Assembly: GCA_964016885.1 (NCBI GenBank)
Contig: OZ024741.1
Span: 30,814,001 to 30,878,000 of the forward strand
Reading direction: 5' to 3'
Source of the DNA: Eledone cirrhosa
Taxonomy: Eukaryota
DNA length: 64,000 bases
The position numbers and the translations under genes were made by a program. Below, one piece after another: positions 1,640 through 1,841 of this stretch (position 1 is its first letter; every line of letters starts with the position of its first letter). The notes under the pieces are model-generated. The model was not told the origin of the DNA. It worked only from the letters and a program-made list of their open reading frames with translations, and did not search any database.

Positions 1640-1841
1640 TAGGAACGAGTAGGACCATGACGGGTGAGCTCAAGCCGTTTCGACGGCTAATTCTAGACAT
1701 TGCGTCCAGAATTAGCCGTCGAAACGGCTTGAGCTCAGCCGTCGGGGTCCTACTCGTTCCTATTACCCACTCTACTACCCTAAGTATTGAGTACTTTGGT
1801 GCGTTATGGTCCATCTGGTTCCTTACCACATTTCCTTCGTT
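1640..1841 (+). mobile_element. family A fold-back element with the 3' half of a hammerhead
   Basis: Palindrome 1640-1762 plus a unique tail. Contains GAAAC-GGCT-tgagctc-AGCC-GTC (1721-1743), i.e. GAAA, stem III and GUC. Flanked by (TA)n. Confidence 0.75.

Follow-up and report, generated by a model that had tools for sequence, protein, structure and literature searches.

Palindromic repeats of Eledone cirrhosa as 3′ stubs of a Penelope-like retroelement, probably formed by priming from both target ends

Why do some retroelements leave copies whose two halves mirror each other, and what sets the point at which the mirror is placed? A 64-kb stretch of the Eledone cirrhosa genome (the window: all 64,000 nucleotides analyzed here, contig OZ024741.1) holds five short copies that raise this question, at 1640, 21001, 22123, 35690, and 61862. 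All are head-to-head arm pairs. An earlier note on this DNA described them as a palindrome followed by a common tail, read the sense arm as the 3′ half of a hammerhead ribozyme, and proposed that nascent cDNA primes itself on the ribozyme's stem II hairpin. We found all five where it had placed them, and the hammerhead 3′ half is indeed there, with GAAA, stem III, and the GTC triplet in place. The proposed mechanism fared differently. From the junction sequences, we consider it probable that two cDNAs, primed from both target ends, run off the end of a single sense RNA before they are linked head to head.

Each of the five copies sits in (TA)n and has one arm with a tail of about 80 nt. Positions within the ribozyme are counted from the G of GAAA (0), which puts the predicted cut just before +23. 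The copies are as follows; a strand is given where one applies.

1640..1698, minus strand: tail-less inverted arm of copy 1640-1842, starting at RT start site 1 beside (TA)n, with its 5′ end at -17
1699..1703: junction spacer of the same copy, 5 nt, unlike the continuation of either arm
1704..1763, plus strand: sense arm of the same copy from -17, with the stem II 3′ strand, GAAA at 1721, stem III, and the stem I 3′ strand; the stem III loop is palindromic GAGCTC, the triplet GTC lies at 1741-1743, and the predicted cut at 1743/1744
1764..1842, plus strand: tail of the same copy, about 80 nt, spanning RT start sites 1 to 2 and followed by (TA)n
21001..21140: older, diverged copy with its tail partly deleted
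21886..22004: sixth, degraded copy (matches of 76-85% identity), absent from the earlier list
22123..22332: subfamily A3 copy, with a minus-strand tailed arm to 22267 (about -19), a 6-nt spacer, and a tail-less arm from 22274 (about -16)
35690..35879: subfamily A2 copy, with the tailed arm on the minus strand and the tail-less arm from 35824 (-12)
61862..62013: copy with a tail-less arm to 61923 (-19), a 3-nt overlap, and a tailed arm from +29

The tailed arm of the 61862 copy begins 6 nt past the predicted cut site. Positions in the A3 copy were derived by arm-to-arm comparison, and there was no long A3 copy among the loci fetched. Other repeats share the window: a 19-bp tandem satellite of about 150 units (6305-9173), a non-LTR RT fragment with GVPQG and YADD motifs adjoining the 61862 copy (62130-62700, plus strand), and kilobase-scale inverted repeats with near-identical arms (28383-30921 and 41809-46971), which are possibly other two-armed insertions.

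How large is the family, and what is its parent? Genome copies were collected by pattern searches. A 40-base stretch of the family has 10,256 exact matches in the genome and its reversed control has 0. A 26-base pattern over the A1 subfamilies has 25,276 (control 0), and a genome pattern search for subfamily A2 contributes a further 5,182 short palindromes. Genome-wide, there are at least 25,000 arms. Longer copies run upstream into a 3′ UTR and then into an ORF with RT and C-terminal GIY-YIG motifs. This is an open frame of 710 aa upstream of the shared 3′ end, in which an RT YxDD motif and a C-terminal VIY...YIG can be read by eye; Pfam and PDB sequence searches with the 710-aa protein gave no match. 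Full-length tandem units with a period of 3,568 occur twice, about 300 kb apart, on contig C14 (L211-L214 and L227-L228), and we regard these as candidate source loci.

When we inspected 30 copies of the ORF 5′ end by eye, 21 ran in the order pLTR with full hammerhead, tail, 5′ UTR, and ATG. The others start at the cut site (2), at -17 (1), within the tail (2), or within the 5′ UTR (4). In tandem copies the tail continues into the 5′ UTR and ATG, and this order makes it the first part of the unit that follows. Both RT start sites, which bound the tail, therefore occur twice per unit-length RNA, once near its 5′ end. [quoted passage not shown] They have the features of EN+ PLEs, namely a single ORF with RT and GIY-YIG, pLTRs in tandem or partial tandem, and an inverted 5′-truncated copy with a tail at one end. 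Relative to the description of the Hydra clade in PMC8557442, the protein has the motifs SDKTG, CNCPDRSIC, CNLCSEE, and CKH, with RWR where RWK is expected, and the flanks of the copies examined show the (TA)n insertion of that clade. By these motifs and this target, the parent appears to be of Hydra-clade type. It does not have the form of a non-LTR retrozyme, with non-coding tandem units that each hold a whole hammerhead, because the short copies hold half ribozymes and the tandem unit is a coding element. Each stub, having no upstream TATA-like stretch, would be a separate one-off product.

Where is the other half of the ribozyme? No copy in the window has the upstream core half, as the earlier note observed. 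It expected longer copies elsewhere to carry it as CTGANGA; such copies exist, but their motif is YUGANAA (YTGANAA in DNA), 61-63 nt upstream of GAAA, with 4,185 genome matches (control 0). A search for the canonical CTGANGA 4-34 nt from GAAA returned 43 unrelated, junction-made matches, both motif and distance being wrong. In 63 long arms, a sample selected by motif, position 7 is G in 48, T in 6, A in 5, and C in 4, varying by subfamily, and positions 4-6, 8, 9, and 10.1 are kept in 61-63. Since position 7 is free while its neighbors hold, the register is that of a U3-A8 core. U3 is present in 24 of these arms and C3, a mismatch with A8, in 37. The long copies thus appear to carry a U3-A8 hammerhead variant with a stem II domain of about 62 nt. 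The elements of a type I core are present (3-8 pair, free N7, GAAA, NUH, and three helices), and the helices form in a constrained fold. This fold lies 0.4-3.5 kcal/mol above the minimum-energy fold, which in three subfamilies hides GAAA in an alternative hairpin, and folding showed no advantage over shuffled sequences (z -0.08 to -0.97). The stem III region is nearly palindromic, with a predicted dimerization energy of -27 to -31 kcal/mol. No hammerhead appeared among the 150 of 176 Rfam matches listed for the window, which were sub-threshold, low-complexity miRNA matches. The ribozyme is predicted to cleave itself 3′ of the triplet, and inserts that begin at +23 hint at this indirectly.

The window contains other hammerhead-like sequences. 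At 54816-54865 (plus strand) lies a compact hammerhead apart from these copies; its core is U3-A8, its palindromic loop 3 is again GAGCTC, and it is the only complete match of a scan of the window. A second repeat family has CTGACGA...GAAAC cores at 2196(-), 2629(+), 36164(-), 60523(-), 60862(+), and 61288(+); it forms inverted pairs in (TA)n at 1959-2866 and 60416-61395, whose arms hold the entire core. More hammerhead-like cores lie at 3151(-), 31597(-), 61532(-), and 61788(+), the last two being an inverted pair of minimal motifs. Abutting the 35690 copy, about 2.6 tandem units of 511 bp (approximately 34380-35690) each have CTGATGA on the minus strand; the array is retrozyme-like, but a GAAA half was not confirmed in it.

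We mapped the ends of 159 distinct arms, taken from the window, its two neighbors, and loci found by patterns that need just one intact arm; most of this material lies in the first 55 Mb of a single contig, and it was selected by a match on at least one arm. With ends defined as maximal matches, which overlaps inflate slightly, 13 arms end beyond -64, 1 at -64..-45, 0 at -44..-26, and 1 at -25..-23. Then comes a wall: 72 arms end at -22..-17 and 42 at -16..-10, or 114 of the 159 within -22..-10. Further downstream there are 11 at -9..-1, 9 at 0..+21, and 10 at +22..+24, the anchor being blind to ends past +24. Twenty arbitrary 10-kb stretches, a small sample kept outside the map, held just 5 arms. 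The earlier note had the palindrome centers lying just upstream of GAAA and differing among copies. Most do fall inside the stem II domain, but they abut a fixed wall and are not free.

The two arms of a pair are not alike. Among 48 pairs, 45 combine a tailed and a tail-less arm, one has two tailed arms, one has two tail-less arms, and one is unresolved (p=2e-11 for the asymmetry among the 47 resolved pairs). The longer arm may be of either kind. Within the 45 pairs the tail-less arm reaches further in 21, the tailed arm in 15, and 9 are ties; in the long copies L063, L146, and L147 the tail-less arm is longer by kilobases. The subfamily mark is identical on both arms in 42 of the 48 pairs. 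Junctions comprise 25 inserts, 19 overlaps, and 4 blunt joints. Centers with perfect palindromes or 1-nt spacers recur, and these are too tight for a priming loop. Two further junction types were seen. Approximately 6 of the first 50 A2 palindromes (by eye; e.g., L343 and L350) share the same -18/-12 blunt junction, which may be a favored joint or may reflect some stubs multiplying as units. A minor class of perfect palindromes, in L233 and others, is centered on the stem III GAGCTC and could derive from later deletions or from annealing at this self-complementary loop.

What is special about the wall? It stands at -18, the A of a TYAGT motif that we take to fit the initiator consensus YYANWYY, with a TATA-like stretch about 30 nt upstream and an ATG 231 nt downstream. 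We examined the first 40 of 223 palindromes of the C(-19) subfamily with both arms reaching -18. Of their 80 arms, 38 stop at -18, 15 at -22, and 7 beyond. The letter before A(-18) in 68 arms (spacers of at least 2 nt kept, those of 0-1 nt dropped) is C in 37, T in 15, G in 14, and A in 2. G exceeds A (p=0.004), whereas inside the spacers G makes up 11% and A 39%. We rejected a template variant with G at -19 as the source of the G excess, since among the first 100 of 157 long copies 97 have C at this position and 0 have G (hand count). In A2, an independent subfamily (15 of 5,182 palindromes fetched, 30 arms), 0 arms pass -19, 10 stop at -18, and G precedes 6 of these 10.

The non-templated G at the wall is what a capped RNA end would leave, and these DNA footprints suggest such an end. 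In LINE-1 and SVA inserts, a non-templated G has been read as a copied cap (PMC4859970), and the promoters of D. virilis Penelope lie in the pLTR (PMC2377424). T before A(-18) is as frequent as G (15 versus 14), and this T excess, together with T runs, fits A-tailing of run-off cDNA. The peak at -22 is less secure and may be partly an artifact, because templated AATT inserts can mimic it; A precedes 11 of the 15 arms that stop there. A likely transcription start at the wall would explain why the palindrome centers lie inside stem II.

A second class of arms begins at the predicted cut. The pattern for very short palindromes matches the genome 703 times and its reversed control 91 times. In the first 15 of these palindromes (30 arms), 18 arms start exactly at +23, 1 at +22, and 0 at +19..+21, and in 8 of the 15 both arms start from +23. 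A broader count covered 1,992 arms with GGGG not preceded by C, the first 100 of which include about 55 whose upstream sequence is unrelated (hand count); at this rate, about 4% of A1 arms begin at the cut. When a sample of 90 arms was anchored on the tail, just 3 had their start at +22..+24, amid scattered ends at +27..+34. By eye, the partner of a cut-start arm ends at the cut or downstream of it much more commonly than at -18, which suggests one RNA, or one RNA dimer, behind both arms. By hand counts, one U3-A8 subfamily is enriched in cut-start arms (odds ratio 9, p=3e-7), but the other is not (1.6, p=0.32). The 3-8 pair alone is thus no predictor of cleavage.

How might these parts fit together? 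In the scheme that we consider probable, the PLE protein would cut both (TA)n strands, and one cDNA would be primed at each tail boundary, that is, at the tail end and the tail start. A purified PLE protein, that of the anole, does cut and extend both strands, and reverse transcription starts at two tail-bounding sites in vitro (PMC11167929). Both cDNAs would extend to the RNA 5′ end. This end would mostly be a capped start on the TYAGT A, which lies within stem II, 18 nt before GAAA, and less often the hammerhead cut. An RNA that started inside stem II would account for stubs without the CUGA half. The 5′-proximal tail copy, 60-140 nt from the RNA start, would serve as the priming site for short palindromes, and the 3′ tail copy would give long arms. 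The run-off cDNAs would acquire a C opposite the cap, or A's, and would be joined by a direct end-to-end template jump or by microhomology repair or short re-priming. Brief snap-back or re-priming at the run-off end probably makes some of the short templated spacers. Both features, a cap and a ribozyme cut, belong to the sense RNA, so the template was likely sense. A more specific version, which we hold tentatively and at somewhat under an even chance, has transcription starting inside the ribozyme, a capped RNA with the 3′ hammerhead half, a dimeric RT copying it from both ends, and the two cDNAs serving as each other's second-strand templates.

Could the palindrome instead arise from a single cDNA? 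Such a cDNA might run off the RNA 5′ end, gain a few non-templated bases, snap back, and copy itself, the hairpin then being opened at the tail start. This is self-priming at the RNA end, not on stem II, and it would account for the 5′-end class and the subfamily mark that two arms have in common. Two features resemble A-tailed ends that re-prime on a nearby TT: ends at -12/-11 (19 of 159), and spacers in which the arm's own AATTAGCC recurs. We nevertheless judge single-cDNA snap-back unlikely, because the tail-less arm reaches further in 21 of 45 short pairs and exceeds its partner by kilobases in three long copies, and because centers with 0-1 nt spacers and both arms complete leave no loop. 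Self-priming as such has already been proposed for PLE inversions (PMC3846280); on the stem II hairpin, it places centers within the stem II domain, where most do fall. However, one arm would then have to extend into a stem II helix's 5′ strand (-53..-46 in the outer helix, within -44..-26 in the inner), and just 1 of 159 arms ends in -64..-26. The check that the earlier note suggested, inversion breakpoints against the fold, goes against it: ends cluster at the wall and not at the partner strands, and junctions lie off paired positions. It would also need the tailed arm, made first, to be the longer, and either arm can be. We consider this reading highly improbable.

The remaining readings differ in what they take the wall to be. 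If both target ends prime but RT stalls in the inner hairpin of stem II on a longer RNA, ribozyme structure would fix the center, and the -18..-22 wall does coincide with the 3′ strand of the predicted inner helix in subfamilies A1a-c and A2. Yet A1d has the same wall although its predicted inner helix differs and is weak, 13 of 159 arms traverse the entire ribozyme, and neither the G excess nor the +23 class is accounted for; we think a stall rather unlikely. It is very unlikely that long inverted insertions were later shrunk to short palindromes by central deletion. Some centers are direct-repeat deletions, among them GAGCTC-centered perfect palindromes and the 61862 copy, but deletion would not yield a base-sharp wall with non-templated letters or the gap from -26 to -64, and young, near-identical arms have the same wall. 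Short copies also resemble inverted-repeat elements in TA, as a DNA-transposon MITE would. A MITE has fixed terminal inverted repeats, a constant interior, and a relation to a transposase, whereas here the ends are unequal (tail on one side), the centers differ among copies, and the sequence forms the 3′ end of an element with RT and GIY-YIG; target duplications are unreadable inside (TA)n. The parent retroelement refutes this reading, to which we give next to no probability, and the earlier note was right to call the copies retro-derived PLE inserts.

How does two-ended priming on a sense RNA compare with known systems? In LINE-1 twin priming, both target ends prime cDNA, as proposed here. 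The two LINE-1 cDNAs cover different RNA segments, whereas here they cover the same segment from two fixed start sites. In LINE-1, as we propose for this family, a non-templated G marks copies that reach the capped 5′ end (PMC4859970). The C-terminal EN+ PLEs of the Hydra clade (PMC8557442) share with this element a single ORF with C-terminal GIY-YIG and the motifs DKT, CxCX5C, CxxC, and CxH, as well as (TA)n targets, an inverted 5′ copy, a tail at one end, and a hammerhead in the pLTR. The unit here is 3.57 kb (theirs generally <3 kb), the tail is about 80 nt (theirs 30-40), RWR replaces RWK, and the hammerhead is a U3-A8 variant with a stem II domain of about 62 nt, whereas theirs is canonical. 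Published Hydra alignment and hammerhead supplements may contain similar variants. Poseidon of Anolis carolinensis likewise has two tail-bounding RT starts, an AT-rich target, and extension of both strands, and its main template, uncleaved RNA, is a further likeness (PMC11167929). Its start sites showed no strand bias and no RNA reads ended at the cut, whereas in this family 45 of 48 insertions use both sites, one time each, and one class of inserts starts at the predicted cut.

Among PLE hammerheads described in PMC4209133, including the U3-A8 of Schistosoma Cercyon, there are U3-A8 covariation, G10.1-C11.1, a palindromic loop 3, and motif pairs on opposite strands, all as here. This family differs in its stem III, a helix of 4-6 bp, in its long stem II with a likely promoter, and in one abundant subfamily with a C3-A8 mismatch. 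Penelope of Adineta vaga has head-to-head pLTRs, an optional tail, and TATA and initiator-like motifs in the pLTR (PMC3846280). Self-priming on an antisense template was proposed there, whereas in the present family a sense template is suggested by the cap-like G and by ends at the cut site. In a search of the openly available literature, no listed paper mapped PLE inversion centers to a capped start or a ribozyme cut.

What does this family add? Prior work had already described this class of element, with its inversion and tail, and the U3-A8 core. PMC8557442, PMC4209133, and PMC11167929 treat two questions as open: how PLEs come by their inverted 5′ copies, and whether PLE hammerheads cleave in vivo. 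Base-exact junctions in a family of at least 25,000 arms lead to two sharp predictions, a capped start at -18 and a 5′-OH end at +23, and the two-ended priming model can be tested with the in vitro system already established. The family also illustrates how a MITE-like repeat can be a one-off product of retrotransposition. If the more specific version above is true, thousands of insertions would preserve in their junctions a fossil record of the cap and of a U3-A8 hammerhead's cleavage in vivo, and the question of sense versus antisense templates for Penelope inversions would be settled. Moreover, a 3′ pLTR could then complete the retained hammerhead half in trans, turning capped RNA into cut RNA.
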